NCBI GenBank assembly: GCA_963666205.1 | Contig: OY762654.1 | Location: 1,760,001-1,824,000, forward strand | Direction: 5' to 3' | Length of the DNA: 64,000 bases | Source of the DNA: Synergistales bacterium | Lineage (GTDB): Bacteria > Synergistota > Synergistia > Synergistales > JAFGMB01 | In this document: positions 9,686-26,357 of the stretch, piece after piece | Numbering within the stretch: position 1 is the first letter of the stretch | Layout of the letters: each line of letters starts with the position of its first letter | Translations under genes and position numbers: made by a program | The notes under the pieces: generated by a model | The model's database searches: none | Told to the model about the DNA's origin: nothing | What the model saw: only the letters and a program-made list of their open reading frames with translations

Positions 9686-10756
9686 ATGAAGATACTTGCC
9701 ATAAACCCGGGTTCTACAAGCACAAAGGTTGCTTTTTTTGAGGATGACAGGGAAATATGGAGCGATACCCAGAGGTATGACGTTGATGTCCTGAAGGAAT
9801 TCCACGGAATAATGGCCCAGCAGGATTTCAGACTTGACGAGATCCGTAAGGTAGTAGAAGCAAATAAAACAGACCTCTCTGAACTTGATGCCGTTGTTGG
9901 AAGAGGAGGTCTTCTGAGGCCTATTCCCGGAGGAACCTACGAAGTGAATTCGGATATGACAGATGATCTTGGTTCCTGTAAATATGGAGCCCATGCCAGC
10001 AACCTGGGAGCGGGTCTTGCTGTTAGCCTGGCAAGAGAAGGCGGCTGCAACAGGGCTTTCATTGTTGATCCTGTAGTAGTGGATGAACTCATTCCTGAAG
10101 CTCGTTTAAGCGGTATGCCCGGTATCGACAGAAGATCCATCTGGCATGCCCTTAACCAGAAAGCTGTAGCACGAAGGGCTGCTGGAGAAATGGGGAAAAA
10201 ATATGAAGATCTGAACATCATTGTAGCCCATATGGGAGGCGGCATTTCCGTTGGGGCACATGAAAATGGAAAGACCATAGATGTTAACAATGCTCTTGAC
10301 GGCGAAGGACCCTTCTCTCCAGAGAGGGCCGGTTCCCTGCCTGCAGGCGGGCTGGTCAGGCTGGCCTACAGCGGGAAATATGATCTGCCCGAGCTTCTGA
10401 AGAAAATGGTAGGTAATGGCGGCCTGGTGGCCCATCTCGGTACGAACGACCTGAGGGAAGTCCAGAAGATGATAGAGTCGGGCAATGAAAAGGCGAAACT
10501 GGTCTTTGAAGCCCTGGCCCTTCAGGTAGCCAAGGAGATCGGTTCCCGCGCAGCAGTTCTCAAAGGTAAAGTTGATGCCATTGTTCTTACTGGAGGTTTG
10601 GCCTACAGCGATATGCTTGTGCAGAGGATAAGGGAAAGGGTATCTTATATAGCCGATATCAAGGTATATCCAGGAGAGGATGAAATGATGGCCCTTGCAG
10701 AAGGAGCCATGAGAGTCCTGAAAGGCGAGGAAGAGGCCAACGTTTACAAGGGATAG
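9686..10756 (+). CDS. buk: Butyrate kinase, second paralog
   Basis: INPGSTSTK, GRGG, HASNLG, HALNQKA, HMGGGIS and GPFSPERAG; ATG 9686 (TTG 9680 is an alternative start). Confidence 0.95.
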   Translation: MKILAINPGSTSTKVAFFEDDREIWSDTQRYDVDVLKEFHGIMAQQDFRLDEIRKVVEANKTDLSELDAVVGRGGLLRPIPGGTYEVNSDMTDDLGSCKYGAHASNLGAGLAVSLAREGGCNRAFIVDPVVVDELIPEARLSGMPGIDRRSIWHALNQKAVARRAAGEMGKKYEDLNIIVAHMGGGISVGAHENGKTIDVNNALDGEGPFSPERAGSLPAGGLVRLAYSGKYDLPELLKKMVGNGGLVAHLGTNDLREVQKMIESGNEKAKLVFEALALQVAKEIGSRAAVLKGKVDAIVLTGGLAYSDMLVQRIRERVSYIADIKVYPGEDEMMALAEGAMRVLKGEEEANVYKG

Positions 10757-10763
10757 TTAAATT

Positions 10764-10818
10764 TCATCAGGATTTTCCGGATCAGGGTGTCACACCATGA
10801 TCCGGAAAATCCTGATGA
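10764..10818. terminator. Long hairpin between convergent buk and iclR genes
   Basis: Perfect 21-bp arms tcatcaggattttccggatca / tgatccggaaaatcctgatga; no clear U-tract. Confidence 0.6.
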
Positions 10819-10892
10819 TTCAGAAAGTCTCGCAACAATGGTTGGTCCTGTGGGATCCCCGATCCGTCCTGGAACAAGTTGACTTACTTTGA

Positions 10893-11672
10893 TCAATCCT
10901 GCTGATATCCCAGCCTGCTGGACAGCCTTTTACCTGTTTCAATCAGAGCATTAAGGATCATTTGTACTCCTTCAGTATTATCTGTATAACGGTACTTAAG
11001 GTAAGAAATACTGACTGCATAGGGTATTTCTCCCTGCTTGTTTCTTATGGGTACCGCATAACATATCATGCCGTCCACATACTCTTCGTTGTCACATGCA
11101 TATCCCTGTTCCCTTATTTTTTTTAGATCTGCCAGTAGGTCAGAAAGGTTCATAATGGTATTGCGGGCAGTTTTCCGGAAAGGATATTCTCTGAATTGAT
11201 CCATAATGAAGTCCTCTGGTTGATAAGCCATAAAGACCTTTCCGAGGCCTGAATTATATGCAGTAGCAGGGGTTCCGATCTTTCTTGCGTCAACTTTTAT
11301 GGGGAAATCAGATTCTACCTGATCGATGAGAATGACCTGATCCCGATACAATACTCCAACATTTACGTTTTCGCCGGTAGATTCTGCGAGCAATTCTATT
11401 TCTCTGTGGATCATATCCCGATCACTTGATCTTCTTGCCACGTTGTTCCCGATGGAGAATAACCTGTAGCTAAGCATATACTTACGACTTTTTTCCTCTT
11501 CCACGACCCATCCGAAGTTTTTCAGAGTGTATACCAGCCTTTGAGCTGTACTTTTACCTATATCAAGTTTTTTGGATATATCCCTGATCCCGATTGGTCC
11601 ATTTTCATCAAGAACTTCAACCACCTGAAGAGCTTTTATTACCGATTGAAGGATATTTTTATCTCTTTCCAT
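10893..11672 (-). CDS. IclR-family transcriptional regulator
   Basis: N-terminal QSVIKALQVVE..HTH; C-terminal SGLGKVFMA, GYACDNEE and AVPI..AVSIS. Confidence 0.9.
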   Translation of the reverse strand: MERDKNILQSVIKALQVVEVLDENGPIGIRDISKKLDIGKSTAQRLVYTLKNFGWVVEEEKSRKYMLSYRLFSIGNNVARRSSDRDMIHREIELLAESTGENVNVGVLYRDQVILIDQVESDFPIKVDARKIGTPATAYNSGLGKVFMAYQPEDFIMDQFREYPFRKTARNTIMNLSDLLADLKKIREQGYACDNEEYVDGMICYAVPIRNKQGEIPYAVSISYLKYRYTDNTEGVQMILNALIETGKRLSSRLGYQQD

Positions 11673-11764
11673 TTTTTACCTCCCCAACGATTCTTTCAGA
11701 TAAGGAACTGCCAAAGATATTCTCTTCAAGATGACATCCCTTATGTCTGGTCACTAATGTAATG

Positions 11765-11838
11765 TTGCTTTTTGAACAGGAGTGGATTATACTTTAAATG
11801 TACCCAATATACGGGTCAGTGTACCGCATAGCGGGTCA
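11765..11838 (+). promoter_or_regulatory. Sigma70-like promoter plus two tandem imperfect palindromes (candidate IclR operators)
   Basis: ttgctt(11765)-17 nt-tatact(11788); tgtacccaatatacgggtca (11799-11818) and tgtaccgcatagcgggtca (11820-11838). Confidence 0.55.
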
Positions 11839-11942
11839 AATGTCCAGAGTTAGAAAATGATCTGTTATTCACTCTGGGATGCTGATATATCAAGTTCCTT
11901 CGAAGTCAATGTAAATACGGTCAGATAACTGACTATTTTAGC

Positions 11943-13192
11943 CAAAGGAGGCAGGAAGAAATGATAAAGACCAGGAAACTTGTAATGATCCCGGGACCGA
12001 CTCCGGTGGTTCGTTCGATCCAGGATCAGATGGGCAGGGAAACGGTGGCCTTTGGAGATTCGGGTTTTGTGGAAGATTTTTCTGAGGTTCTTGCAGATCT
12101 TAAAGAATTGTGGAAATGCGATGGAGAAGTGTTTGTGGTGGCAGGGTCGGGAACGTTAGCTATGGAAATGGCAATAGCCAATACGACCAAACGTGGTGAC
12201 AGCATACTGATCTGTTCCAATGGATTTTTTGGTGATCGTTTTATAGATATGTGCGAGAGGAAAGGCCTTGATGTAGATGTTCTTTCTGCCGAGTGGGGAA
12301 GCAGCGTGACCCCTGAAATGGTAGAGGCAAAACTTGAAGAGAAGAAATATGATGCGGTAACGGTAACCCATGCGGAGACTTCCACTGGAGTTGTAGCGCC
12401 GATAGGAGCTATTGGAGAGGTTCTGAAAAAACATCCTGAAACTATTTATATTGTGGATGCGGTAGCCGCAGCCGCAGGAATAGAAGAGAAGGTAGACCCC
12501 ATGGGAATAGATATACTTCTTACATGTTCCCAGAAAGCTTTCGGAGTTGCCCCCGGACTTGGGATAGTATGGGCCAGCAGAAAGGCAATGGCCAGAAGGG
12601 AAAGCCTTGGAAAGATCCCCGAGTCATATATAGATTTTGATAAATGGCTTCCTGTAATGCATGACCCCAGGAAATACTGGGGAACTCCTCCCATTAACAT
12701 GATATGGGCTTTTAAGGAAGCTATCCGCATAATCAGGGAAGAGGGAATAGAGGAGCGATATGCCCGTCACATAAGGCAGGCAGCGATGTTTGACGGAGCT
12801 ATGGAAAGTCTTGGTTTTGAAGTGGCAGCCGAGGAAGGATACCGGGCTCCGACCCTTTCTGTATATAAGTATCCTGGGGGTGCTGAAGTGGATGATGCCA
12901 GTTTCCGATCGGTACTTGGGGAAGAGGGAGTAGAGTCGGCAGGCTGCCTTGGCAAGTACAAGGGAGTAGCCTTCAGAATGGGTCATATGGGCAATATAGA
13001 CAAGCACACCCTGGTTTCTGCAATAGCAGCAGTGGAGAGGGCCTGCATGAGATGCGGAGTGGAGATAGAACCCGGCAGGGCTGTGGGAACCCTTCAGAGG
13101 GGTCTCGTCAACGAACACTGATATCCTGCTAAAACATAGGAATTATATAACTGAAAACCTGTAGGCAAAGAAGTGATTTAAAAAACCGGGAA
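11943..13192 (+). repeat. 1250-bp direct repeat, copy 1 (RBS + aminotransferase gene + 3' UTR)
   Basis: Same sequence recurs at 21480-22729 (offset 9537); the sense ORF and all five antisense ORFs in the track translate identically in both copies. Confidence 0.95.
11961..13121 (+). CDS. Class V PLP aminotransferase, alanine-glyoxylate / serine-pyruvate family (copy 1)
   Basis: MIPGPTPV, GSGTLAME, HAETSTGV, CSQKAFGVAPG (PLP Lys) and RMGHMG. Confidence 0.9.
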   Translation: MIKTRKLVMIPGPTPVVRSIQDQMGRETVAFGDSGFVEDFSEVLADLKELWKCDGEVFVVAGSGTLAMEMAIANTTKRGDSILICSNGFFGDRFIDMCERKGLDVDVLSAEWGSSVTPEMVEAKLEEKKYDAVTVTHAETSTGVVAPIGAIGEVLKKHPETIYIVDAVAAAAGIEEKVDPMGIDILLTCSQKAFGVAPGLGIVWASRKAMARRESLGKIPESYIDFDKWLPVMHDPRKYWGTPPINMIWAFKEAIRIIREEGIEERYARHIRQAAMFDGAMESLGFEVAAEEGYRAPTLSVYKYPGGAEVDDASFRSVLGEEGVESAGCLGKYKGVAFRMGHMGNIDKHTLVSAIAAVERACMRCGVEIEPGRAVGTLQRGLVNEH

Positions 13193-13219
13193 AAAGGCAT
13201 GCCTTCATTCCCGGTTTTT
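13180..13219 (+). terminator. Intrinsic terminator after aminotransferase copy 1
   Basis: aaaaaccggg-N19-cccggttttt. Confidence 0.75.
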
Positions 13220-13371
13220 CTCAAAAGTGCTGTTGTGTTGGTGAAAGACCAATGAATCGAGATATCCAGCTGGCACATACTTTTATAGTCGTTAGAAGAA
13301 GAAAATGGTGGATGCTAATAGAATTAATAAAAGCAATACTGTCATTTTATCTCAAAACCATGCGGAACATA

Positions 13372-13402
13372 GTAAGGGCTCATAAAATCTATGAGCCCTT
13401 AC
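13372..13402 (-). terminator. Hairpin downstream of the TRAP permease
   Basis: gtaagggctcata-aaatc-tatgagcccttac, 13-bp perfect stem. Confidence 0.55.
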
Positions 13403-13438
13403 GGGGTATAACTCTATGACGTAGTGTGCAGCAAAATC

Positions 13439-15415
13439 TTATTCACAAACTGGAGTGTCAATCTTTTTAACTGATATTTTCTGAATGAACCACATTAAAA
13501 TCAGAATTCCAAATCCTATTGAATCTGATAACACACCAGGGAATATAAGAGCTAGAGCTCCTACGAAGAGGATCAGTCTTTCCCAAATCTTCAGATTTCT
13601 TAGCCAGTAGCCTGATCCGGCAAAGGCAAGGGAACAGGTTCCAATGACGGCTGTGATGGAATAGAAGAGTACATGCAGAGGTGTCGTATTTATAAGAAGT
13701 AACTGTGGGTTATACGCAAAAACGAAAGGAATAGTGAATCCCGCGATAGCTAATCTCAAGGCTGTAAAACCTGTTTTCATTGCATTGGCATTTGCTATTC
13801 CGGCGCCGGCGTATGCAGCCAGGGCTACAGGTGGTGTAAGGTCTGCTATGATCCCGTAATACAGGATGAACATATGAGCAGCAAGAGGTGGTACACCGAA
13901 TTTCTGTATTGCCGGTGCGGCCATTGATGCGAGGACGATATATTTAGCTGTAGTAGGAAGACCCATTCCCAGAATAATAGAAGCGATCATTGTAAATATC
14001 AGAGTAAAGAAGAAGTGGCCACCGGAAAGGATTATTATTCCATTTGCAAGTTTGAGGCCTACTCCGGTAAGGGTGACAACTCCTATTATGATTCCCGCGC
14101 AGGCACAGGCTGCAGCTACACCAAGGGCAGAACGGGCGCCACTCTCCATTGCGTCAAGAATGTCTTTAAAACTGAGTCTCGTACTGGCTTTGAACATAGC
14201 AATACCTACAGTGACCAATATGGAAACAAAGGCTGCCCTTAGGGGAGTATAGCCTTTTACAAGCAGATAGACGATTACAAAGATAGGAATAAGAAGGTGA
14301 CCGCCCTTCCTGAGGACTTTGCCTAGTTGCGGGAGATTTTCCTTGGGAAGTCCCTTCAGTCCAAGTCTTTTGGCTTCCATATGTACCATTATTCCAACTG
14401 CGAGATAATACAGAACTGCTGGAAGAACAGCTGCTACAGCTATCTTGATGTAGGCAATCCCGAGGAACTGGGCCATGATGAAAGCTGCGGCTCCCATTAT
14501 TGGAGGCATAAGCTGTCCTCCTGTTGAGGCAGCTGCTTCTACTGCACCTGCAAAATGTCCTGGATAACCGATACTTTTCATTAGGGGGATAGTGAAAGCT
14601 CCTGTAGTAACTGTATTTGCCACAGAGCTTCCCGATATTGTTCCAAAAAGTCCGCTGGCAAGAACTGCTACCTTTGCAGGACCTCCGACCCTGTGCCCTG
14701 TCGCTGAAAGGGCAAGGTCAATAAAGAACTTTCCGAGGCCTGTTTTATGTAAGAAAGCTCCAAAAAGAATGAAAAGAAAGACAAAAGTCGCAGAAACTCC
14801 AAGGGGTAACCCAAGGATCCCTTCAGTGGTTACATACATGTGAGTGATGATCCTTTTGAGGGGAAAGCCTCGATGACCTAGCATGCCAGGGATGTAAGGG
14901 CCTAGTTTTGCATAAAGGAGGAATACTGCGGCTACGATGGAAATTGGAAGGCCAACGATCCGGCGACATGCTTCGAGAACAAGCAATATAGCCAAAGCTC
15001 CAAATACCAGGTCACCCCAGGTGGGTAAACCTGCCCTGAGAACTATCTCTGTATAATTTATTACAATATATAACCCCACCCAGCTTCCGAGACCAGCCAG
15101 GATAATATCGATCCAGGGAAGCCTGTCCTTTGATGCTTTCGCAGAAAATGGATAAAGAAGGAATACCAGACACAGGGTGAAAGACAGATGTATCCCCCTT
15201 TGTATCTGGGCAGGAAAAACTCCAAATGCAGCAGTATAAAGCTGGAATGCAGAAAAGGCTATGCAAAGGAAAACAATGATCTTACCCCACAGCCCATCCA
15301 ATATCCGGAAAGTTGATTCCTTATCATACTTTTGTAGTATTTCCTCCACATTTATTTCGTGATCAGAAGCTGTTTCTGAAATATTGTTATCCAGAGTTGT
15401 CTGTTGATTACTCAT
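13439..15415 (-). CDS. TRAP transporter 4TM/12TM fusion permease (TAXI-associated)
   Basis: GGPAKVAV, GTISGSSVANT, STGGQLMPPIMGAAAF, GMGLPTT and TPPVALA motifs. Confidence 0.92.
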   Translation of the reverse strand: MSNQQTTLDNNISETASDHEINVEEILQKYDKESTFRILDGLWGKIIVFLCIAFSAFQLYTAAFGVFPAQIQRGIHLSFTLCLVFLLYPFSAKASKDRLPWIDIILAGLGSWVGLYIVINYTEIVLRAGLPTWGDLVFGALAILLVLEACRRIVGLPISIVAAVFLLYAKLGPYIPGMLGHRGFPLKRIITHMYVTTEGILGLPLGVSATFVFLFILFGAFLHKTGLGKFFIDLALSATGHRVGGPAKVAVLASGLFGTISGSSVANTVTTGAFTIPLMKSIGYPGHFAGAVEAAASTGGQLMPPIMGAAAFIMAQFLGIAYIKIAVAAVLPAVLYYLAVGIMVHMEAKRLGLKGLPKENLPQLGKVLRKGGHLLIPIFVIVYLLVKGYTPLRAAFVSILVTVGIAMFKASTRLSFKDILDAMESGARSALGVAAACACAGIIIGVVTLTGVGLKLANGIIILSGGHFFFTLIFTMIASIILGMGLPTTAKYIVLASMAAPAIQKFGVPPLAAHMFILYYGIIADLTPPVALAAYAGAGIANANAMKTGFTALRLAIAGFTIPFVFAYNPQLLLINTTPLHVLFYSITAVIGTCSLAFAGSGYWLRNLKIWERLILFVGALALIFPGVLSDSIGFGILILMWFIQKISVKKIDTPVCE

Positions 15416-15419
15416 AGCT

Positions 15420-15914
15420 TCACCTCCAGCGCTTAATCAATTCATTGAAAAGATAGGTCTTTTCTATATAAAAGCTGACGGGTTTTCCCGGTTTTTCCCA
15501 GGACTCAAGTTTGAAAATATTCTTCTCACTAAGGAAAGTATGGTCTGCATACCTCCCAACCCTGATGTCCAGCCTGGGAATTTTCAATGTATAACCTGTT
15601 ATTCGAAATTTTCCGGGTTCCCGGATGAATTTCTGGTTTTCAAAAGAACAATAGGGTAATCCTGCACCAAAATCTGAGTAAACTGTTTCGATCAAGGTAA
15701 TCTGACCATCAATTATTTCGTAGATTTCATCAACCGGTGTTTTTTCGACAGAATGAATACATCTTATGGTGAACTGATCTCCATTACTTATCAACTGTTG
15801 ATATACAATCTCTCCATCCTCATTTTTTACGATGAGAACTCGAAGAGGAAAAGTTAAAAAAGTTATGGTTAAGAGAGCTATTATGATGGCGATAGCATTT
15901 GAATTCTTTTTCAA
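15420..15914 (-). CDS. DUF1850-like protein of TAXI-TRAP operons
   Basis: IHSVEKTPVDE and FGAGLP motifs; located between the TAXI binding protein and the permease. Confidence 0.8.
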   Translation of the reverse strand: MKKNSNAIAIIIALLTITFLTFPLRVLIVKNEDGEIVYQQLISNGDQFTIRCIHSVEKTPVDEIYEIIDGQITLIETVYSDFGAGLPYCSFENQKFIREPGKFRITGYTLKIPRLDIRVGRYADHTFLSEKNIFKLESWEKPGKPVSFYIEKTYLFNELIKRWR

Positions 15915-16029
15915 GGGATTACCATTCTTTCCTGGTTTACTAATATTGAAGCAACAAGTTTAAGATGGAGTTTTCTGAGAACCTGGTCCCCGGAAAACTC
16001 CATCCATTTCTTCAATTTATGAATCTAGC

Positions 16030-16986
16030 TTATTTCACTATCCCTTTTTCTTTATAGTATTTCGCAGCACCAGGGTGTATCGGGATGGTAATTCCATCCA
16101 GGGCTTTTTCTAATTTAATGGATTTGCCCTTATGATGGCTTTCTCCTACTTCGTCAAGGTTTTCAAAAAGGGCTTTGGTGATGTTGTAAACTGCCTCTTC
16201 GGAAAGATCAGCATTCGCAACTATAATAGCCTGGACTGCAACCGTTTCTACTGGCTCTGTCTGTCCATTGTATGTATTCGCAGGCATTACCTCAACTGCG
16301 AAGAAGGGATACTTAGCCATCAATTGTTCTCTCATCTTTCCGTAAATGTTGATGAATTTGATCTTGTGGAGAGTGCTTATGTCCTGGATGGAAGAGTTGG
16401 GAGCACCAGTTGTGTAGATAAACGCATCAAGCATTCTGTCTTTAAAATGATCTGCGGTTTCTGCATATGAAAGGAAATGAGGTTTGAAATCTGTGTATTC
16501 GAGACCAAAAGCGCTGAATATCTGTCTGGCATTTGCCTCGTTACCGCTTCCCGGAGCACCTACTGAGACATCGTGGTCCTTAAAGTCCCTTATAGTCATC
16601 AGTTCACTTTCAGCTGGTGCTACCACGTGGATAGTCTCCGGGTAAAGTCTTGCAATGGCTCTTACGTTCTCGATCTTTTTCTTGAAAAATTCTGTGCCGT
16701 TATATGCGTAGTGTGCGATATCATTCTGAACAAGAGCAAGATCCACATCTCCAGCTGCAATAAGGTTCATATTTTCAACAGAAGCACCTGTTGACTGGGC
16801 GGTGATATTTACATCTGATACATGATTGCTGATGATCTGGGCGATTGCCCCTCCAAGTGGATAGTATGTTCCTGCTGTTCCACCTGTAGCAAGGGTCCAC
16901 TGAAGAGTACGTGCAGATGCTCCACCTGCTATGGACATGATGCATAGTGTTACAAGAAGAATCCTGATCCAGTTTTTTCTTAACAT
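16030..16986 (-). CDS. TAXI-family TRAP substrate-binding protein
   Basis: Signal peptide; ATGGTAGTYY, STGASVEN, LYPE, GAPGSG and PIHPGAAKYY; ATG 16986 after AGGAGG. Confidence 0.92.
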   Translation of the reverse strand: MLRKNWIRILLVTLCIMSIAGGASARTLQWTLATGGTAGTYYPLGGAIAQIISNHVSDVNITAQSTGASVENMNLIAAGDVDLALVQNDIAHYAYNGTEFFKKKIENVRAIARLYPETIHVVAPAESELMTIRDFKDHDVSVGAPGSGNEANARQIFSAFGLEYTDFKPHFLSYAETADHFKDRMLDAFIYTTGAPNSSIQDISTLHKIKFINIYGKMREQLMAKYPFFAVEVMPANTYNGQTEPVETVAVQAIIVANADLSEEAVYNITKALFENLDEVGESHHKGKSIKLEKALDGITIPIHPGAAKYYKEKGIVK

Positions 16987-17049
16987 TTTGTCCCCTCCTT
17001 TTAATTTTTGTAACGGTGTCAAGGAAATTGAAAAAGCCTCATTTCTTAT

Positions 17050-18045
17050 TTATGACGTTACATTAAATTTATAAAATTCAGGATTTAAGAGCCCGGGGAT
17101 CTTCTCTCCTTTCAGGTAAGAAACTGTAGATAGTACAGCCCCGCTGACTTCTCTGTAAAGAGCCTCTTCCGTCCATGCGGCTACATGGGGCGTCATTATA
17201 ATATTGTTCTGTTTGGCCAAGGGGTGGCTTGAATTGACGGGTTCTTTGGAATATACATCTATTGCAGCTGAAGCAATGCTTCCTTTTTTCAGGGCCTTTA
17301 TCAAAGCAGTCTCTTCTATAATTGGACCTCTGGCAGTATTTATTATTATCGAATTCGGCTTCATGAGGTTAAATTCCGGGTCTGAGATGAAACTTTCAGT
17401 TTCTTCCGTGAGAGAACAGTTTACTGAAATTACATCTGATTCCCTTAAGAGGAAGGCAAGTTCTCCCGTTGAGGTCATATTGCCGAATTCATTTTCTTTG
17501 ATATCAACATAGGGATCGTAAACAATAACCTGGCAATCAAACCCCTGTAATTTTCTTGCCACTTCTTTACCTACTGCACCATAGCCTATAATGCCAACCG
17601 TTTTATTCCTTAGTTCAAAGCCAAGAAGCGTATCACTCGTTCTCCATTTGTCTCTGTGTATTGTCTCAGCATGGATCTGAAGTTTCCTCAAAGAAGCAAG
17701 GATCAATAGTATGCAGTATTCGGCCACAGTTGTGTTATTAGCTCCGGGGACATACGAAACTGCAATCCCTTTCTTTGTTGCTTCCCTGATATCCACATTT
17801 GAAGGTTTGCCTCCACACTTTGCAATTATTCCAAGATTCCGGGCATACTTCATATCTTCCTTGTCAACACCGCACCTTGAAGTAATTATTATGCCATTGG
17901 TTGTCTCAAGGATCTCCCTGAGGTCAGTCTTGGAAAAAGTGTCATCGGGATAAACAAACCGGATGGTGGTCAATTCTTCGAGAGGTCTGAACCATTCCAT
18001 AGGACCTTCTGGTTCAATGACGTGAATCAGTGGTTTTTCAGCCAA
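17050..18045 (-). CDS. D-isomer-specific 2-hydroxyacid dehydrogenase (glyoxylate/hydroxypyruvate reductase or SerA-like)
   Basis: GIIGYGAVG, INTARG, DVYSKEP and TPHVAAWT; TTG at 18045 after AAGGAGG. Confidence 0.88.
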   Translation of the reverse strand: MAEKPLIHVIEPEGPMEWFRPLEELTTIRFVYPDDTFSKTDLREILETTNGIIITSRCGVDKEDMKYARNLGIIAKCGGKPSNVDIREATKKGIAVSYVPGANNTTVAEYCILLILASLRKLQIHAETIHRDKWRTSDTLLGFELRNKTVGIIGYGAVGKEVARKLQGFDCQVIVYDPYVDIKENEFGNMTSTGELAFLLRESDVISVNCSLTEETESFISDPEFNLMKPNSIIINTARGPIIEETALIKALKKGSIASAAIDVYSKEPVNSSHPLAKQNNIIMTPHVAAWTEEALYREVSGAVLSTVSYLKGEKIPGLLNPEFYKFNVTS

Positions 18046-18147
18046 ACATATCTCCTCCTTGAAGTGTGAGAAAAGGATCAATGGTATATAGCTGTAATAA
18101 ATCAGAGCAGTTTCCTGGTCAGAATATTTGACTGACAGCTTAAGTAC

Positions 18148-18174
18148 ATATATCATGTCAGATATACGATGTCA
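18148..18174. promoter_or_regulatory. Tandem 13-bp direct repeats in the divergent promoter region (candidate GntR operator)
   Basis: atatatcatgtca (18148-18160) and atatacgatgtca (18162-18174); a third copy lies upstream of the gntR gene. Confidence 0.6.
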
Positions 18175-18348
18175 AATATTGATGCATTTGAAAGTAGCTT
18201 TCAGATTTTTGAGATAATTTGCAGAAACTCTTTTATCGGCCAGTTTTCAAATGGCATTTATGGTAAATGTAATCTCTGATCAAGGTCTTTGCATTGCACA
18301 TGATTTTTTGTACAAATAGACCTTTATATAGGGAGGAATAATTATTCC

Positions 18349-19176
18349 ATGACAGAGAATGGTTCAATTGGTTTTTTTGATTCCGGACTTGGAGGCCTTA
18401 CTGTAGTAAAAGAGGTAATGAGACTTCTCCCGGGAGAAAACATCCTTTATTTCGGAGATAACGGTCGATCTCCCTATGGAGAGTACAGTAGAGAAATTCT
18501 GCAGACCCTGTCTCTCCAGATCTCCGGGTTTCTTCTAAAGAGGAGGGCTAAAATGATAGTTGTTGCCTGTAATACTGCAACAGCTGCATCCCTGGATCTT
18601 CTTCAGTCGACTTTTTCGATTCCTGTGATCGGTGTCATTGAGCCTGGTTCAAGGGCCGCCGTTCGAGCTACGAAAAACGGGAGGATTGGTCTTCTGGCAA
18701 CGAACTACACTGTTAACAGCGGTTTTTATCAGAAAGAGATTACTGATCTTCTCCCTGAAGCGGAAGTATTTTCTGAACCAGGCCCAGAATTTACACCATT
18801 GATAGAATCTGGCAAGATCGAAGATAGTGAAACCGAAGAAGCTGTGTTGAGACATTTGAAACCATTGAAAGATAAGGATATCGATACTCTTCTTCTTGGA
18901 TGTACAATTTTCCCGATTATCAATCCTTTATTCATTAAACATCTGGATAAAAAAGTTTCTATTATTGACCCTTCAATGGAAACTGCAATTTCTGTCAGGG
19001 AAATACTGCTGGAATATGGACTTGTCAATGAAGGGGAGACTTCTCCCCGAAGGGAATTTTATACCACGGGAGATCCGGATAGATTCAAAGGTTTCGGAGA
19101 TCGTTTTTTGCCTGGAGCACCTATTCAGGTTTCCAATGTTGATCCGTATACCCTTGTTCCATCTCTTAATATCTGA
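18349..19176 (+). CDS. murI: Glutamate racemase-family protein with atypical second-Cys motif
   Basis: FDSGLGGLTV, PYG, VACNTAT and GVIEP motifs; GCTIFP in place of canonical GCTHYP. Confidence 0.8.
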   Translation: MTENGSIGFFDSGLGGLTVVKEVMRLLPGENILYFGDNGRSPYGEYSREILQTLSLQISGFLLKRRAKMIVVACNTATAASLDLLQSTFSIPVIGVIEPGSRAAVRATKNGRIGLLATNYTVNSGFYQKEITDLLPEAEVFSEPGPEFTPLIESGKIEDSETEEAVLRHLKPLKDKDIDTLLLGCTIFPIINPLFIKHLDKKVSIIDPSMETAISVREILLEYGLVNEGETSPRREFYTTGDPDRFKGFGDRFLPGAPIQVSNVDPYTLVPSLNI

Positions 19177-19325
19177 TAGAAAAGACAGATTAATGAATCT
19201 GTCTTTTCACGGAGTTAATTTGGTTTGTATTTTGGAAATTGATCTCGGCAATATCTGGATTACAGGGAATGCGGGTTCCATGCATATCCTGGAAATATAA
19301 TAAAACAATAAAGGAGTGTTCTGAA

Positions 19326-20219
19326 TTGAAAATAGCAGGGATGTTCGCACCGGTTCCGACTCCATTTAAGGATAATGAGGAGATCGATTTCGGAAGGTTT
19401 AAGGAAAATCTTGGGAAATGGGAAAAAACAGGGCTTGCAGGTGTTGTTGTACTGGGATCCAATGGGGAGTTCGTTTCTCTTACCCATGAAGAAAAGGTGC
19501 AGATGATATCCTTTGTGAGAGAAAATATTTCAAAGGAAAAGATGGTTATCGCCGGAACAGGCTGTGAATCCACAAGAGAAACTATCCAGCTGACGAGAGA
19601 AGCTGCCGAATGTGGGGTTGATGCCGCTCTTGTAGTCAATCCTACTTATTTCAAGGGGAGTCTGAAAGAGGATGTATTGGAGGCACACTTCAAAAAAATT
19701 GCCGATGCATCTCCGATACCGGTAATGATCTACAACATGCCAGGAAACACAGGGATCAATATGTCTGCCAGACTTCTGGTCAGGCTTTCCAGACATCCCA
19801 ATATTGTGGGATTGAAGGATAGTGGAGGAAATATTGTCCAGATCTCTAATGTTATTAACGGTGCATCAAGGGATTTTTCGGTTTTTGCAGGCTCCGGAAG
19901 TTATCTTCTGACCACCCTTGTGATGGGGGGAGTAGGTGCCACAATGGCAGTTGCTAACGTGGTTCCGAACTATTGTGTCGAAATTGAAAAGGTATTTCAG
20001 GAGGGAAATATTGAAAAAGCCAGGGATATGCAGCTAGCGCTTTTAGATCTAAATGCTGCAGTGACAAGCGGGTTTGGAATTCCCGGTCTGAAATATGCCC
20101 TTGACAGGATCGGCTATTACGGAGGACCTGTACGTTCTCCCCTGCTGCCTGTTTCCGATATTCAGAAGAAGGAAATCGATAGATTGCTTGAAGAAATTAA
20201 TGCTTCTGCATGGGCATAA
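19326..20219 (+). CDS. DapA/NAL-family aldolase, 4-hydroxy-2-oxoglutarate aldolase (HOGA1)-like
   Basis: GSNGEF, GTGCEST, HPNIVGLKDSGG, NAAVTSGFGIPGLK and GYYGGPVRSPL; TTG 19326 after AAGGAG. Confidence 0.8.
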   Translation: MKIAGMFAPVPTPFKDNEEIDFGRFKENLGKWEKTGLAGVVVLGSNGEFVSLTHEEKVQMISFVRENISKEKMVIAGTGCESTRETIQLTREAAECGVDAALVVNPTYFKGSLKEDVLEAHFKKIADASPIPVMIYNMPGNTGINMSARLLVRLSRHPNIVGLKDSGGNIVQISNVINGASRDFSVFAGSGSYLLTTLVMGGVGATMAVANVVPNYCVEIEKVFQEGNIEKARDMQLALLDLNAAVTSGFGIPGLKYALDRIGYYGGPVRSPLLPVSDIQKKEIDRLLEEINASAWA

Positions 20220-20233
20220 GGTGGTGAACATCC

Positions 20234-21400
20234 TTGCCAATTGAATCTGCACGTAAAATGGAAGAAATAAGACCTTCTGCTACAGTGGCAGTTTCAGATA
20301 AAGCAAGAGAACTGGCTCTGGAAGGCAGGGATATCATCAATCTTGGCGGAGGAGAACCGGATTTTGATACCCCGGAGCATGTTACTGAAGCGGGAATAAA
20401 AGCGATAAAAGATGGCAGGACCCATTATGTTTCCAGTCTTGGTATTCCGGAACTCCGAACAGCGGTTTCCAGGAAGCTGTATGTAGAGAATGGTTTAACC
20501 TACACCCCGGATGAAATTATGGTCAATCCAGGTGCGAAGCTTGGGTTATATGCAGCGATAATGGCATTGATCGATCATGGAGATGAGGTCCTGATCTTTG
20601 ATCCAAGCTGGGTTTCATATGATGCCATAATTCGTCTTGCGGGAGGAACACCAGTACATGTACCACTTGACAGGGGAGATAACTTCACCATAAGGAGAGA
20701 GGTTCTTTCAGAAAAGATAACACCCAATTCCAGGATGATCCTTATCAACAGTCCTAATAATCCTACAGGACGTATTCTGACACTGAAGGAGTTAGAGGTG
20801 GTAGCAGCGGCAGCAGAGCAGCACGATCTTTTTGTTCTTTCGGATGAGATATATGAAAAGATAGCCTATGACGGTAATAAGCCGGTAAGTTTTGGGACCG
20901 TGGATGGAATGCTTGAGCGGACCATCGTTATCAATGGTTTTTCCAAGGCCTATGCCATGACAGGTTGGCGTCTGGGATATGTAGCAGCAAAGAAAGCTCT
21001 TATGAAAGAACTTTTGAAAGTACAGCAGCATTCTGTAACATGTGCAGCAGCCTTTACTCAATATGCTGGAGTAGCTGCACTTGAAGGTCCCCAGGAAGTA
21101 ATTGAAGATATGGTCTCTGTTTATGATACCCGTAGAAGGATAATAACTGATGGTCTGAATAGTCTGCCAGGAGTTTCCTGTGAGACGCCTGAAGGAGCAT
21201 TTTATTCTTTCCCGGATATTTCAGGTACTGGAATGTCATCAATGGAGTTTACCAATTTACTTCTTACAGAAGCAGGAGTGGCTGTTACACCGGGCATAGC
21301 CTTTGGAGAATGCGCAGATGGCCACGTAAGACTCTCTTTTGCCAATTCTACAAAGCTCATTGAAAATGCCATAGCTCGAATGAAGACATTGTTAACCTGA
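20234..21400 (+). CDS. Class I/II PLP aminotransferase (aspartate aminotransferase-like)
   Basis: GEPDFDTP, NSPNNPTG, SDEIYE and GFSKAYAMTGWRLG. Confidence 0.9.
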   Translation: MPIESARKMEEIRPSATVAVSDKARELALEGRDIINLGGGEPDFDTPEHVTEAGIKAIKDGRTHYVSSLGIPELRTAVSRKLYVENGLTYTPDEIMVNPGAKLGLYAAIMALIDHGDEVLIFDPSWVSYDAIIRLAGGTPVHVPLDRGDNFTIRREVLSEKITPNSRMILINSPNNPTGRILTLKELEVVAAAAEQHDLFVLSDEIYEKIAYDGNKPVSFGTVDGMLERTIVINGFSKAYAMTGWRLGYVAAKKALMKELLKVQQHSVTCAAAFTQYAGVAALEGPQEVIEDMVSVYDTRRRIITDGLNSLPGVSCETPEGAFYSFPDISGTGMSSMEFTNLLLTEAGVAVTPGIAFGECADGHVRLSFANSTKLIENAIARMKTLLT

Positions 21401-21479
21401 AAGAATCATTTTGAACAGCAATTGAGAGAGCATACAAGTTTTATCGATGAATAGTCAGTTTTCACAGGATTTTTCACTA

Positions 21480-22729
21480 CAAAGGAGGCAGGAAGAAATG
21501 ATAAAGACCAGGAAACTTGTAATGATCCCGGGACCGACTCCGGTGGTTCGTTCGATCCAGGATCAGATGGGCAGGGAAACGGTGGCCTTTGGAGATTCGG
21601 GTTTTGTGGAAGATTTTTCTGAGGTTCTTGCAGATCTTAAAGAATTGTGGAAATGCGATGGAGAAGTGTTTGTGGTGGCAGGGTCGGGAACGTTAGCTAT
21701 GGAAATGGCAATAGCCAATACGACCAAACGTGGTGACAGCATACTGATCTGTTCCAATGGATTTTTTGGTGATCGTTTTATAGATATGTGCGAGAGGAAA
21801 GGCCTTGATGTAGATGTTCTTTCTGCCGAGTGGGGAAGCAGCGTGACCCCTGAAATGGTAGAGGCAAAACTTGAAGAGAAGAAATATGATGCGGTAACGG
21901 TAACCCATGCGGAGACTTCCACTGGAGTTGTAGCGCCGATAGGAGCTATTGGAGAGGTTCTGAAAAAACATCCTGAAACTATTTATATTGTGGATGCGGT
22001 AGCCGCAGCCGCAGGAATAGAAGAGAAGGTAGACCCCATGGGAATAGATATACTTCTTACATGTTCCCAGAAAGCTTTCGGAGTTGCCCCCGGACTTGGG
22101 ATAGTATGGGCCAGCAGAAAGGCAATGGCCAGAAGGGAAAGCCTTGGAAAGATCCCCGAGTCATATATAGATTTTGATAAATGGCTTCCTGTAATGCATG
22201 ACCCCAGGAAATACTGGGGAACTCCTCCCATTAACATGATATGGGCTTTTAAGGAAGCTATCCGCATAATCAGGGAAGAGGGAATAGAGGAGCGATATGC
22301 CCGTCACATAAGGCAGGCAGCGATGTTTGACGGAGCTATGGAAAGTCTTGGTTTTGAAGTGGCAGCCGAGGAAGGATACCGGGCTCCGACCCTTTCTGTA
22401 TATAAGTATCCTGGGGGTGCTGAAGTGGATGATGCCAGTTTCCGATCGGTACTTGGGGAAGAGGGAGTAGAGTCGGCAGGCTGCCTTGGCAAGTACAAGG
22501 GAGTAGCCTTCAGAATGGGTCATATGGGCAATATAGACAAGCACACCCTGGTTTCTGCAATAGCAGCAGTGGAGAGGGCCTGCATGAGATGCGGAGTGGA
22601 GATAGAACCCGGCAGGGCTGTGGGAACCCTTCAGAGGGGTCTCGTCAACGAACACTGATATCCTGCTAAAACATAGGAATTATATAACTGAAAACCTGTA
22701 GGCAAAGAAGTGATTTAAAAAACCGGGAA
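21480..22729 (+). repeat. 1250-bp direct repeat, copy 2
   Basis: Matches 11943-13192. Confidence 0.95.
21498..22658 (+). CDS. Class V PLP aminotransferase, alanine-glyoxylate family (copy 2, identical protein)
   Basis: Translation identical to 11961..13121; same AGGAGG RBS. Confidence 0.9.
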   Translation: MIKTRKLVMIPGPTPVVRSIQDQMGRETVAFGDSGFVEDFSEVLADLKELWKCDGEVFVVAGSGTLAMEMAIANTTKRGDSILICSNGFFGDRFIDMCERKGLDVDVLSAEWGSSVTPEMVEAKLEEKKYDAVTVTHAETSTGVVAPIGAIGEVLKKHPETIYIVDAVAAAAGIEEKVDPMGIDILLTCSQKAFGVAPGLGIVWASRKAMARRESLGKIPESYIDFDKWLPVMHDPRKYWGTPPINMIWAFKEAIRIIREEGIEERYARHIRQAAMFDGAMESLGFEVAAEEGYRAPTLSVYKYPGGAEVDDASFRSVLGEEGVESAGCLGKYKGVAFRMGHMGNIDKHTLVSAIAAVERACMRCGVEIEPGRAVGTLQRGLVNEH

Positions 22730-22760
22730 TGAAGGCATGCCTTTTTCCCGGTTTTTTAAA
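22714..22760 (+). terminator. Intrinsic terminator after aminotransferase copy 2
   Basis: tttaaaaaaccggg-N19-cccggttttttaaa. Confidence 0.78.
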
Positions 22761-22963
22761 GATACAAAACAAACAAGCACCTGCGGGTGTTACGGGCATT
22801 GGGTTTAATGAAGGGCCTGATGTTGAAATGGAGGTACTGTGTTATCCCCCAAAGATACTGAGGAATTGCTTATTGTTCTGAAACAGATGATTGCTACAGG
22901 CCACACTGTCCTTGTATACAGATGGATTGATCCTCTAAAAAGTGAACAAGGGAGGTTCCTGTT

Positions 22964-24178
22964 ATGAAAGACTTTATGTACAGATGTTGTGGATGTGGAA
23001 AGAGTTTTCCCGGAACCAGGCTTCACTTTCGCTGCGAAGATTGTGGAGAACCCATGGAGGTAGATTATGTCCGCCATGGAAAGATTGCCAAAGATTCTTT
23101 TTTGGGAAATACAATATTGGAAAGATTTGCAGATTTTTTCCCCTTTTCCGAAACCTGTAAAAATATATCAATGAGAGAAGGATTTACGCCACTGGTAGAA
23201 TCAGAAAAACTGGAAAACGAGTTCGGAGTCAAAAAAGTATATCTTAAAAATGAAAGTCAGAATCCAACCTGGTCTTTTAAAGATCGTGGTACTGTTGCTG
23301 GATTGAACCATGCTCTTTCTCTGGGATATAAAGCCATAGGAACAGTTTCAACCGGTAATATGGCAGCTTCTGTAGCCGCATATGGTTCGAGGGCGGGATT
23401 AAAAACATTTATCCTTGTTGATCATAAACTTCCCCCGGAAAAACTGAATCCCATCGTAGTATATGGAGCAGATGTAATAAAGGTTGAAGGAGATTATGGA
23501 AATCTTTATTTTGAGAGTCTCAAAATCGGGAAGGACTTGGGGATATATTTCATTAACTCCGATTCGCCCTTCCGGGTAGAAGGATCAAAGACCATAGCTT
23601 TTGAAATATATGAACAGATGAAAGGGGATAATCCTGATTTTGTTATAGTTCCAACCAGTGCAGGAGGCAATATAAGAGGAATAGCTAAAGGTTTTAAAGA
23701 GTTGAAGCAATGTGGCCTGATAGATAATATCCCGATTATTATATGTGCACAGGCTGAAGGTTGTTCCCCCATTGCTTCTGCCTGGGAAAAAGGGGAAAGT
23801 ATGATTAACAGGGTAAACCATCCTGAAACTATTGCCCATGCCATAGAGAATCCATTTCCTCCCAGTGGCAATGAAGTGTTGAGGATGCTGGTTTCTGTAA
23901 AGGGGATGTGTGTATCAGTATCAGACAATGAAATTCTTGATGCCCAGAAGAAACTGGCTCATGAAGGGATCTTTATACAGCCAGCCTCAGCCACCCCCAT
24001 TGCAGTAATGGCAAAACTCAAGGAAAGGGGTTATTGGAAAGGGAATGAAAAAGTGGCTTGTGTTCTTACAGGAAGTGGTTTGAAGTTTACAGCCGTGTTC
24101 GAAAAATTGGGCTTATCCTCCCAAAATTGTAAAATCAGGGAACTGGGGAATGTGATTGCAGAATTAATGGATAAATAG
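22964..24178 (+). CDS. thrC: Threonine synthase-family PLP enzyme (fold type II)
   Basis: N-terminal CxxC..CxxC, EGFTPL, NPTWSFKDRG, STGN, EGSKTIAFE and LTGSGLK. Confidence 0.8.
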   Translation: MKDFMYRCCGCGKSFPGTRLHFRCEDCGEPMEVDYVRHGKIAKDSFLGNTILERFADFFPFSETCKNISMREGFTPLVESEKLENEFGVKKVYLKNESQNPTWSFKDRGTVAGLNHALSLGYKAIGTVSTGNMAASVAAYGSRAGLKTFILVDHKLPPEKLNPIVVYGADVIKVEGDYGNLYFESLKIGKDLGIYFINSDSPFRVEGSKTIAFEIYEQMKGDNPDFVIVPTSAGGNIRGIAKGFKELKQCGLIDNIPIIICAQAEGCSPIASAWEKGESMINRVNHPETIAHAIENPFPPSGNEVLRMLVSVKGMCVSVSDNEILDAQKKLAHEGIFIQPASATPIAVMAKLKERGYWKGNEKVACVLTGSGLKFTAVFEKLGLSSQNCKIRELGNVIAELMDK

Positions 24179-24288
24179 AAACTCTGGAGTTAGTTTTTCT
24201 TTCTGGACATAACTGTAAGGGTGGATAATTAGAACTTCGTCGAATATTGTCTTTTCTTTATGTCATGATAGATTTCTAAAAAGAGGTC

Positions 24289-24975
24289 TTAATTCTGATT
24301 ATTTTTAAATCTTCTGATCGCATCTAGAGTTCTTTCCATGGCTTTTAACAGGTGTTCCTCAACTTTCTGTTGAGCAAGATCAGGATCATGTTTCTTAAAG
24401 GCCTCTATTATCTCAAGATGTTCTTTTGTTATAGTTACTATCACTTCTTCAATCCTGAGATATCCGGTTGCTTTTTCTGTAGTAAAATACATAATCCTTT
24501 CGGATTTCTGCTTCAGGTTTTCAAGGGTTTCTTTTATGAGTTTATTCTCGGTATATTTAAAGAGCAATTCATCAAGCTGTTTTTCTGTTTTGATGTAAAG
24601 GGTCATGTTACCAGGATCTTTAAGGAGGTTCAGAAATTCTGTCTTCAGCTTTTCCAGATCGGAATTTTCGGAAAGATGGGCGACAGACCTGGCGGCACTG
24701 CTTTCCAGGAGAATGCGCAACCCCCATAGATCCCTTACACTGCTTTCATCAACTTGAGTTACGATAGCACTTTTATTTGGGGAAATCTCAACAAGGCCCT
24801 GGCTTTCAAGTTTGAGCAGGGCTTCCCTTACCGGAGTAGTACTGACATCAAATTCATTCGCAAGGCGATCGATCTGAAGGGTTTCTCCCGGTATGTATTT
24901 ATGACTGATTATCATCTGTTTTATGGAATGAAAAATCTGGTCAGACAATTTTATTTTGGTAATTTTATTACCCAT
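24289..24975 (-). CDS. GntR/FCD-family transcriptional regulator
   Basis: LANEFDVSTTPVREAL HTH; C-terminal EHLEIIEA..EHL. Confidence 0.9.
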   Translation of the reverse strand: MGNKITKIKLSDQIFHSIKQMIISHKYIPGETLQIDRLANEFDVSTTPVREALLKLESQGLVEISPNKSAIVTQVDESSVRDLWGLRILLESSAARSVAHLSENSDLEKLKTEFLNLLKDPGNMTLYIKTEKQLDELLFKYTENKLIKETLENLKQKSERIMYFTTEKATGYLRIEEVIVTITKEHLEIIEAFKKHDPDLAQQKVEEHLLKAMERTLDAIRRFKNNQN

Positions 24976-25071
24976 ATGAGCACGCCACTTTCATTCGGAA
25001 AGATGTAAAAAATTATTTATATTATGGATCCTTAAGGGTTTCTTATTAGTGGGATTGAATAGAAATATATG

Positions 25072-25084
25072 TGACATCATATAT
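25072..25084 (-). promoter_or_regulatory. Third copy of the 13-bp motif, upstream of gntR
   Basis: Reverse complement atatatgatgtca, one mismatch to each copy at 18148-18174. Confidence 0.55.
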
Positions 25085-25428
25085 ACTATATTTTAATAAT
25101 TCAAAAAAATCAAGAACATTATTTACCTTCATTGCTGCAGTCTTTTTCTCTGAAAAACAGCCATACTCCCTGTTTCCAACCATCGGTTCTTATATGATTC
25201 GATATAGTCCTGAATCTGTATGGTCCTGATCTGTGGGACATTTGACGACAAAATTATCTATAAGAATAAAAACAGATCATTGAAGGTAAGTTTACACTTT
25301 TCTGATAAACAAGTTATACTACTATAACTTCAGTAATAATTCAATAATATGCTCAGGACAGATATTCTTCTGCTTTTAAATGGTTTTTTAATAAAATTAA
25401 ATCTGCTGATAAAGAAGGTGTATCTTTC

Positions 25429-25806
25429 GTGTCAGAAAAAAATACCTATGTTATCTGGACAAGGGAAACATTGCTGGAAATGGCTGAAAAGGCGACCCAT
25501 GGCAGTAACCCCGAGGGTGGAGTGTCCATCTCTTTTCTTCGTCAGGAGAACGAGTGTGCTGTAAACGTTGTAGAACTGAAGAAGGGGATCCCTTCTCATA
25601 GGCATGTGAGACATGATGAGATAATCCAGATACTTGAAGGAGAGGGAAAAGCCGTAATTGATGGAGAGGAAAAACAACTCAAACCTGGAGATGTACTGTT
25701 CTGCCCGAGAAATATCTCTCATTCCCTCCATTTTCCAGTCAAACTTCTTTCCATATACACACCCTCCTTTGATCCACGGAATCCGGACAGGATCTTCGAT
25801 AATTAA
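25429..25806 (+). CDS. Cupin-domain protein
   Basis: HRH..HDE..LEGEG and LKPGDVLFCPRNISHS cupin motifs. Confidence 0.85.
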   Translation: MSEKNTYVIWTRETLLEMAEKATHGSNPEGGVSISFLRQENECAVNVVELKKGIPSHRHVRHDEIIQILEGEGKAVIDGEEKQLKPGDVLFCPRNISHSLHFPVKLLSIYTPSFDPRNPDRIFDN

Positions 25807-26278: not shown

Positions 26279-26357
26279 GCTGTGGTAAAATAATCCTGCC
26301 TTAATCGAGTTTTCCATCAGGTTGGTTTCATCCTTTTTCTTTGAAGGTGGGTTTGTT

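Follow-up and report, generated by a model that had tools for sequence, protein, structure and literature searches.

A stretch of 64,000 nucleotides from a Synergistales bacterium (contig OY762654.1, positions 1,760,001 to 1,824,000; hereafter the window) carries an island of transporter, aldolase, aminotransferase and racemase genes flanked by regulators, in a strictly anaerobic, amino-acid-fermenting organism. We read this island, with a probability of about 0.45, as an accessory module that degrades an amino acid of the C5 hydroxy-dicarboxylic kind, 4-hydroxyglutamate being the likeliest candidate. Several features suggest an amino-dicarboxylate of five carbons that yields 4-hydroxy-2-oxoglutarate (HOG) as its 2-oxo form: the aldolase has a HOG-type active site, the TAXI solute-binding protein and the racemase are of the glutamate type, and an aminotransferase of the aspartate aminotransferase (AspAT) type stands together with one of the glyoxylate type. 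The assignment of the aldolase to the type of human HOGA1 is well supported by sequence comparison; the substrate, the direction in which the aldolase works and the role of each enzyme are predicted from the gene families, and the pathway as a whole appears plausible.

In the proposed scheme the TAXI-TRAP system would import a glutamate-like amino acid, which an aminotransferase would convert to HOG; this could be the AspAT-like enzyme or, where that is absent, the AGT-like class V enzyme with glyoxylate as acceptor. The HOGA1-type aldolase would then split HOG into pyruvate and glyoxylate, and the class V aminotransferase would turn glyoxylate into glycine. The net conversion would be of 4-hydroxyglutamate to pyruvate and glycine, the latter being passed to the glycine reductase of the organism. 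Two further activities would be optional: the D-2-hydroxyacid dehydrogenase could reduce glyoxylate or HOG—passages of PMC11261398 describe the reduction of HOG to dihydroxyglutarate in mouse tissue—and the MurI-type racemase could admit D-isomers.

The aldolase and its HOGA1-type site

The best solved relative of the aldolase in a PDB search is human HOGA1 (268.2 bits, versus 169.3 for the best dihydrodipicolinate synthase, DHDPS); by our own count, the two proteins share the same residue in 47 of the first 103 aligned columns. The HMMER alignment places S45, N46, Y108, Y136, K164 and S166 of the island enzyme opposite S77, N78, Y140, Y168, K196 and S198 of the human one (hHOGA), and all six residues are invariant in 24 homologues of 54–94% identity. 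According to passages of Riedel et al. (PMC3188589), K196, Y168 and S77 of hHOGA are catalytic, as nucleophile and proton relay, while N78 and S198 are specific for HOG, of which they bind the 4-hydroxyl and the C5 carboxylate.

Six genes of the DHDPS family are found in the genome, and the HOGA1 combination of residues occurs only in the island copy, in none of the other five. The best-scoring DHDPS gene, at 778440, shows T-T/Arg/Ala, as canonical DapA does, and is likely the true DapA of this genome. Compared with it, the island aldolase has S-N and not T-T in the GxxGE loop, Asn and not Arg at the YNxPxR motif, and K-D-S instead of K-x-A around the lysine; in E. coli DapA the Arg of this motif binds aspartate semialdehyde. 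What the enzyme shares with the true DapA/DHDPS family is the fold family, the Schiff-base lysine and the tyrosine pair, and its score on the dapA model TIGR00674 is borderline (207.5 bits for a cut-off of 206.15).

A quick maximum-likelihood tree was built from 81 HOGA-like rows and the DHDPS paralogues of the genome: the 81 rows split from the paralogues (SH-aLRT 92), and the window aldolase joins that of its nearest relative (locus L009; 97), next L010 and L011 (99). The original prediction, made from the letters of the window, had taken this gene for a HOG aldolase and left its separation from true DapA to phylogeny; on this point solved structures, residues and tree agree, and the enzyme groups with HOGA1. 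As for database names, most homologues are called “dihydrodipicolinate synthase family protein” in NCBI-derived records and one is called 4-hydroxy-2-oxoglutarate aldolase; the KEGG-style JGI names, given automatically, are alone in consistently giving HOG aldolase.

The other genes of the island

Genes were called from the open reading frame (ORF) listing with Pfam and NCBIfam profile scans of the window, and solved relatives were taken from the PDB search (Table 1). Every member of the gene set named originally was found where it had been placed. The list is correct as far as it goes; it omitted the threonine-synthase-like (ThrC-like) gene, the gene of the IclR regulator and the duplicate of the class V aminotransferase gene. 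The genes of the unit first delimited at 13439–24975 are real, and its limits are too narrow in the light of the comparison with a genome of the same genus, described below.

Table 1. Features of the island, in window positions.
Feature	Position	Strand	Evidence
Accessory island, approximate limits	10753..25449	.	comparison with same-genus genome
IclR-family regulator	10893..11672	-	Pfam IclR_C + HTH_IclR
Exact 1250-bp direct repeat, copy 1	11943..13192	+	identical to copy 2; contig breaks at its ends
Class V (AGT/SPT-like) aminotransferase, copy a	11961..13121	+	Pfam Aminotran_5
TAXI-TRAP fused permease	13439..15415	-	TIGR02123, 775 bits (cut-off 320.65)
DUF1850 protein	15420..15914	-	Pfam DUF1850, 67 bits
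TAXI solute-binding protein, putative glutamate-type site	16030..17022	-	TIGR02122, 353 bits (cut-off 84)
D-2-hydroxyacid dehydrogenase (type B)	17050..18045	-	Pfam 2-Hacid_dh_C, 194 bits
Divergent intergenic region	18046..18348	.	
MurI-type glutamate racemase homologue	18349..19176	+	TIGR00067, 231 bits (cut-off 146.65)
Terminator-like hairpin 3' of racemase	19179..19208	+	RNA fold -16.8 kcal/mol, z -5.9
HOGA1-type class I aldolase (DHDPS family)	19326..20219	+	PDB: human HOGA1
Class I (AspAT-like) aminotransferase	20234..21400	+	Pfam Aminotran_1_2, 256 bits
Exact 1250-bp direct repeat, copy 2	21480..22729	+	identical to copy 1; contig breaks at its ends
Class V aminotransferase, copy b	21498..22658	+	Pfam, NCBIfam; identical to copy a
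Terminator hairpin 3' of class V copy b	22714..22760	+	RNA fold -25.6 kcal/mol, z -6.5
Threonine-synthase-like pyridoxal phosphate enzyme, N-terminal Cys4 motif	22964..24178	+	TIGR00260, 193 bits (cut-off 167)
GntR/FCD regulator	24289..24975	-	Pfam GntR + FCD

The top PDB match of the TAXI protein is the glutamate-binding protein of T. thermophilus (1us4, 217 bits). In the passages of PMC11574862 that concern the binding site, the amino and carboxyl groups of glutamate are held by Y45, S75, Q93, E125 and Y200 in VcGluP and by Thr187 in TtGluBP. With PDB chain 8s4j matched to VcGluP through a constant offset of 28, which fits six named residues, these five VcGluP positions correspond to Y53, S81, Q99, E129 and Y203 of the island protein, and the amino-group Thr of TtGluBP is also kept. 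The island protein is of the same family as both binders and has the same ligand-contacting residues, which point to a candidate TAXI protein of the glutamate-binding kind, in line with the original prediction. It differs from VcGluP near the side-chain carboxylate, with Gly at S40 and Thr at V44, two replacements that are shared by the TAXI proteins adjoining the aldolase in Clostridia.

The racemase is closest to glutamate racemase among solved structures (1zuw, 210 bits) and scores as the glutamate type (231 bits), not as the aspartate type (57 bits); its translation contains ACNTA and GCT, which we take to be the motifs of the catalytic cysteines. As the sole MurI-type gene of the genome it was suspected of being the housekeeping MurI, an idea that was dropped since strong MurI-type matches (E < 1e-30) occur in only 5 of 30 Synergistales relatives and not in the other genome of the genus. 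The racemase is therefore probably accessory here, and this Synergistales lineage evidently makes D-glutamate by another way. Elsewhere, at locus L140 (5858–13455), two MurI-like racemase genes flank genes for a gamma-glutamyltranspeptidase, an AstE/AspA-like deacylase, DctM and DUF6305, a cluster that looks like one for the catabolism of D-glutamyl peptides.

Both aminotransferases bear out the family assignments first given to them. The class V enzyme has the Pfam family of Table 1 and, as best solved relatives, AGT (1vjo, 190 bits), SPT (3zrp, 184 bits) and human AGXT (149 bits); its best NCBIfam match is the aspartate-glyoxylate aminotransferase BhcA, whose cut-off of 650 bits is well above the 232 bits reached. 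The class I enzyme, one among many paralogues of the genome, is closest to prokaryotic AspATs (top match 1j32, 337 bits). The ThrC-like protein carries a CxxC...CxxC motif at its N-terminus, finds ThrC 2zsj as top PDB match (216 bits) and ranks third of the four such genes of the genome on the thrC model; homologues about 60% identical are common in Clostridia and Syntrophales, and the Pfam and NCBIfam scans found no homoserine kinase gene within the island. The ORF of the D-2-hydroxyacid dehydrogenase extends to 18156, and its start was revised to the TTG at 18045, which has an AAGGAGG ribosome-binding site and coincides with the N-terminus of its relatives; the aldolase, too, starts with a TTG behind a ribosome-binding site. 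With phosphoglycerate dehydrogenase 1wwk, McyI and glyoxylate reductase 5aov as top PDB matches, the dehydrogenase is intermediate between phosphoglycerate dehydrogenase and glyoxylate reductase. For the IclR regulator the top NCBIfam models are KdgR (161.8 bits) and BhcR (147 bits), both under their cut-offs.

Glycine, the predicted product, has an ATP-yielding sink, since the source genome (G000) contains two grdA genes (1003112–1003552 and 2666504–2666944), each with one in-frame TGA for selenocysteine, and no gene for GcvP, the P protein of glycine cleavage. In five genomes of two families (G012, G018, G021, G027 and G030) a HOGA-type gene lies 18–23 kb from grdA on the same contig.

The two class V copies are identical at 386 of 386 residues. 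The direct repeat that contains them begins 18 bases 5' of the ATG, so that the ATG at 21498 is in the same register as that of copy a, and both copies are followed by the same 43-base terminator element in opposite orientation (13177–13219 and 22718–22760), the former being the exact reverse complement of the hairpin behind copy b. The repeat brackets a 9.5-kb unit, whose loss or amplification it could permit. Contigs of the source runs end exactly at the repeat boundaries, the contig of the repeat itself has about twice the depth of its flanks (42 versus ~21; 12.6 versus ~5), and in a run from a different study both kinds of junction are present; contigs this short cannot prove the order of the repeat-bounded pieces. 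In this read comparison contig joints with a side below 30 were ignored, and the uncovered island parts in runs X4 and X6 were left uninterpreted. In run X1, from the source sample, the contig from TRAP to racemase (13190–19361) has a depth of 7.9, versus ~21–24 for the flanks and the aldolase contig, and contigs at 10448–11972 show 11 differences; two or more versions of the island may coexist in the culture or sample.

A long near-perfect inverted repeat (10763–10820) stands immediately 3' of the butyrate kinase stop, at the left edge of the island. A perfect TTTGTACAAA palindrome at 18307–18316, 5' of the racemase gene, was considered as an operator and rejected: the window holds 2 matches where 2.4 are expected, which is not above chance. 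The promoter scan of the window is likewise not above chance (35 promoter-like sites for 31.8 expected), and the consensus terminator scan gives 8 sites for 13.4 expected and does not call the hairpin after the racemase; because neither scan exceeds chance, hairpins were judged by RNA folding. Just to the right of the island, 26322–29111 encodes a protein of 929 residues in which four PAS domains and an HD domain of the HD-GYP type are accompanied by a weak match to GAF.

The island in other genomes and its possible meanings

The other genome of the genus (G001, 99% complete, flanks 86–94% identical in nucleotide sequence) aligns with the window through 10752, the stop of butyrate kinase, and resumes at 25449; between these points it has about 1 kb, coding only for a different D-2-hydroxyacid dehydrogenase. 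The whole block, some 14.7 kb long, is thus present in one and missing from the other of the two genomes of the genus. In the same family, the nearest relative (G004, locus L009) shows at this site TRAP, TAXI and dehydrogenase genes, then aldolase, class V aminotransferase and ThrC-like genes, then GntR. What stays constant in these islands is the aldolase; the remaining genes are modular. The dehydrogenase was considered as a conserved partner and set aside: the copy beside butyrate kinase in the same-genus genome and in a further genome of the family (G002) is of a different type, 31–34% identical to that of the window.

A pattern-plus-tblastn scan detected at least 406 related loci among 185,579 species genomes, of which the best 80 (51–72% identity) were kept; by record title 28 are Synergistota, and most others are Bacillota. 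Neighbours were counted within 5 kb of the aldolase, in all 80 loci and in the 40 that have 5 kb on both sides, counts in which related genomes are not independent and ORF calls are crude. The commonest neighbour is an AGT-like class V aminotransferase (26/80; 15/40), followed by organic-acid transporters of any kind—TAXI, DctPQM, Na+:dicarboxylate symporter or tripartite tricarboxylate transporter—(23/80; 15/40). Then come carbamoylase or allantoate-amidohydrolase-like (12/80; 7/40), hydantoinase or allantoinase-like (11/80; 6/40) and homoserine-dehydrogenase-like (HomDH-like) genes (10/80; 7/40), AspAT-like (6/80; 4/40) and Ldh_2 genes (6/80; 3/40), aspartate-dehydrogenase-like (AspDH-like) genes (4/80; 4/40) and D-2-hydroxyacid dehydrogenases (3/80; 2/40); MurI-like racemases (loci L049 and L078) and ThrC-like genes each stand at 2/80 and 1/40. 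The conservation of neighbourhood that was looked for thus holds for the class V aminotransferase and the acid transporters, which recur in other phyla, and is not supported for the racemase and the class I enzyme, absent from the island of the nearest relative. As this relative and many loci have a class V and no class I enzyme, we propose that the class V enzyme may itself use 4-hydroxyglutamate as donor.

Several arrangements recur. Two Tissierella loci (L056, L064) have a compact operon of sigma-54 activator, AspAT-like, aldolase and Na+:dicarboxylate symporter genes; Lutispora and [Clostridium] ultunense (L050, L051, L077) have class V aminotransferase, TAXI-TRAP, AspDH-like, aldolase and HomDH-like genes; in L049 and L078 the aldolase is accompanied by a HomDH-like gene next to the MurI-like racemase, without TAXI. 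In loci of Aminobacteriaceae and Synergistaceae, DctPQM and an AllC-like gene flank the aldolase on either side, and IclR and two allantoinase-like genes are found upstream of it; one allantoinase-like gene of L030 (1001–12083) exceeds the allantoinase cut-off (364.5 bits for 357.85). In L076, a Clostridiaceae genome (4468–13181), the aldolase follows AllC (512.7 for 399), (S)-ureidoglycine aminohydrolase (348.5 for 200) and PucR. Beside the Tissierella operon of L056 (13501–19134) stand the sigma-54 activator, an RnfC-like gene and a Gly_reductase-family gene, and this neighbourhood looks like the beginning of a cluster for proline reductase. Locus L136 (12028–15393) contains a ribonucleotide reductase gene with an intein that has a LAGLIDADG domain.

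The predicted route from 4-hydroxyglutamate through HOG to pyruvate and glyoxylate, and on to glycine, is backed by the enzyme families and the HOGA1-type site; several observations weigh against it. The island of the nearest relative is without the racemase, the class I aminotransferase and the IclR gene with copy a, and that of G002 comprises only the aldolase gene and a dehydrogenase gene of the other type; the source genome has its racemase and its class I aminotransferase as extras of its own. The hydroxyglutamate scheme offers no role for the ThrC-like enzyme. The absence of adjacent hydroxyproline-oxidation genes, already noticed in the original prediction, holds and extends to the whole genome, which is without a Pro_dh match; 4-hydroxyglutamate must therefore be imported from outside, and we know of no setting in which it is an abundant substrate. 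GrdA, present in 29 of 30 Synergistales relatives, is uninformative as a discriminator. The Clostridial TAXI proteins adjoining the aldolase are without E125, Y200 and T201. The AspDH-like and HomDH-like neighbours suit aspartate chemistry at least equally well, and HOGA is reported in passages of PMC11261398 and PMC9412052 to decarboxylate oxaloacetate. In the allantoin-type contexts (11–12 of the 80 loci) glyoxylate is a product and no 4-hydroxyglutamate is expected; these ureide contexts make glyoxylate, rather than 4-hydroxyglutamate, the common denominator of the aldolase family. Finally, in three genomes of one genus of another family (f2) an orthologous TAXI protein (67% identity, same site residues) lies beside a 51%-identical racemase in the absence of a HOGA-type aldolase—a DHDPS paralogue of 38–39% identity was considered as a hidden HOGA and ruled out by S-Q/F/K at the key positions—and the TAXI protein and racemase may therefore be a plain D/L-glutamate unit.

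This last observation would fit a mosaic island, in which TAXI-TRAP, racemase and AspAT-like enzyme scavenge D/L-glutamate (import, racemisation, transamination to 2-oxoglutarate) beside a separate module of aldolase and class V enzyme handling HOG or glyoxylate of another source. The glutamate-type residues of the TAXI site and the score of the racemase agree with it, as do the stable hairpin between racemase and aldolase genes, the separate gain and loss of island parts among relatives and the occurrence, in another Synergistales genome, of two MurI-like genes by a gamma-glutamyltranspeptidase gene. We nevertheless hold it unlikely: the nearest relative pairs TAXI with the aldolase without racemase, L049 and L078 pair the racemase with the aldolase without TAXI, the AspAT-like gene is directly beside the aldolase, in other gene order, in its six loci, and between the two genomes of the genus the block comes or goes as a single unit. 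A somewhat fainter chance is that the aldolase homologue is a soluble oxaloacetate decarboxylase, which would pull aspartate through oxaloacetate to pyruvate, the first step being due to class V, class I or AspDH-like enzymes, possibly with glyoxylate as acceptor as in BhcA. Besides the reported decarboxylation and the AspAT-like class I enzyme, this aspartate route draws on the match of the class V enzyme to BhcA, far under its cut-off, on AspDH-like neighbours that exceed an NCBIfam subfamily cut-off (219 bits for 177) and on adjoining transporters of C4-dicarboxylate/aspartate types. It is opposed by the invariance of the HOG-binding S198 and N78 equivalents in the 24 homologues, by a racemase of the glutamate and not the aspartate type and by a TAXI site equal to that of glutamate binders; moreover the oxaloacetate reaction is described, in the relevant passages of PMC9412052, as only a side activity in mammals.

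The allantoin-type clusters (L030, L076) raise the question of a reverse use of the aldolase, condensing glyoxylate from ureides, glycolate or glycine with pyruvate; HOG would be aminated to 4-hydroxyglutamate, and perhaps converted to 2-oxoglutarate in a gamma-elimination catalysed by the ThrC-like enzyme, which would so find a role in a new assimilation route. IclR regulators of the BhcR/IclR/AllR kind nearby go in the same direction. We consider this improbable, given that no kinase or dehydratase for later steps is present, that organisms with glycine reductase can take glyoxylate directly via the class V aminotransferase, that only two of the 80 loci have a ThrC-like gene close to the aldolase, and that operons of transporter, aminotransferase and aldolase are most simply seen as catabolism of an imported amino acid. 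That the island is a piece of ordinary aspartate-family biosynthesis—DapA, threonine synthase and aspartate aminotransferase beside unrelated transport genes—hardly deserves credit: the aldolase is narrowly over the dapA model and the ThrC-like protein over the thrC model, but the genome has its canonical DapA elsewhere, with Arg where the island enzyme has Asn, and three further ThrC-like genes, two of them with higher thrC-model scores, while the 99% complete genome of the same genus does without the island.

The 4-hydroxyglutamate module may be carried one step further, into a bolder proposal that we hold doubtful. The AGT-like enzyme would transaminate glyoxylate with 4-hydroxyglutamate as amino donor, and the aldolase would regenerate glyoxylate from HOG; such a cycle would be the core of a previously undescribed amino-acid fermentation, with pyruvate oxidation and the selenoprotein glycine reductase paired in an internal Stickland reaction. 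The clade of this aldolase, which is widespread in Synergistota and Clostridia and frequently goes by the DapA family name, would then act as a general hub of glyoxylate metabolism, with a part in anaerobic allantoin breakdown as well.

Comparison with known systems

The original prediction knew of no description of this operon, and our full-text literature search, which did not cover subscription journals, likewise found work on mammalian HOGA1 only and no bacterial operon of such kind; PMC8779045 leaves bacteria unmentioned. If the 4-hydroxyglutamate reading is true, it would give a function to a whole clade of the DHDPS family in anaerobic amino-acid fermenters (the 406 or more loci of the scan), and the end of animal hydroxyproline breakdown would exist as a free-standing, transporter-linked bacterial module; glyoxylate, a reactive aldehyde, would be tied to glycine reductase and so to an ATP-yielding fate. 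HOG, 4-hydroxyglutamate and glyoxylate accumulate in primary hyperoxaluria type 3, as stated in passages of PMC11261398, and bacteria consuming these three compounds could be of interest for the handling of oxalate and glyoxylate.

The beta-hydroxyaspartate cycle resembles the island in its class V aminotransferase and its IclR regulator, BhcA and BhcR being best or near-best NCBIfam matches of the island genes; enzymes of the BhcA type are class V aminotransferases in which an acidic amino acid serves as donor and glyoxylate as acceptor. By contrast, the island scores are far under the equivalog cut-offs (232 versus 650 for BhcA; 147 versus 350 for BhcR), equivalents of BhcB, BhcC and BhcD are missing, and the aldolase is of another family. 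The KHG/KDPG aldolase Eda of E. coli also cleaves HOG to pyruvate and glyoxylate via a Schiff base. It is trimeric and belongs to a separate aldolase family, unrelated to DHDPS, a contrast drawn in the abstract of Riedel et al. (PMC3188589).

The closest likeness is with the lower part of the mammalian hydroxyproline pathway (GOT2, HOGA1, AGXT and GRHPR), with which the island shares an AspAT-type enzyme, a HOGA1-type aldolase with identical key residues, an AGT-type class V aminotransferase and a D-2-hydroxyacid dehydrogenase. It differs in being a transporter-linked, regulator-flanked bacterial island in a strict anaerobe without proline dehydrogenase; it adds a glutamate-racemase homologue and the ThrC-like enzyme, and its class V gene is duplicated. 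Unlike that of the mammalian pathway, the glycine formed here would probably go to glycine reductase.

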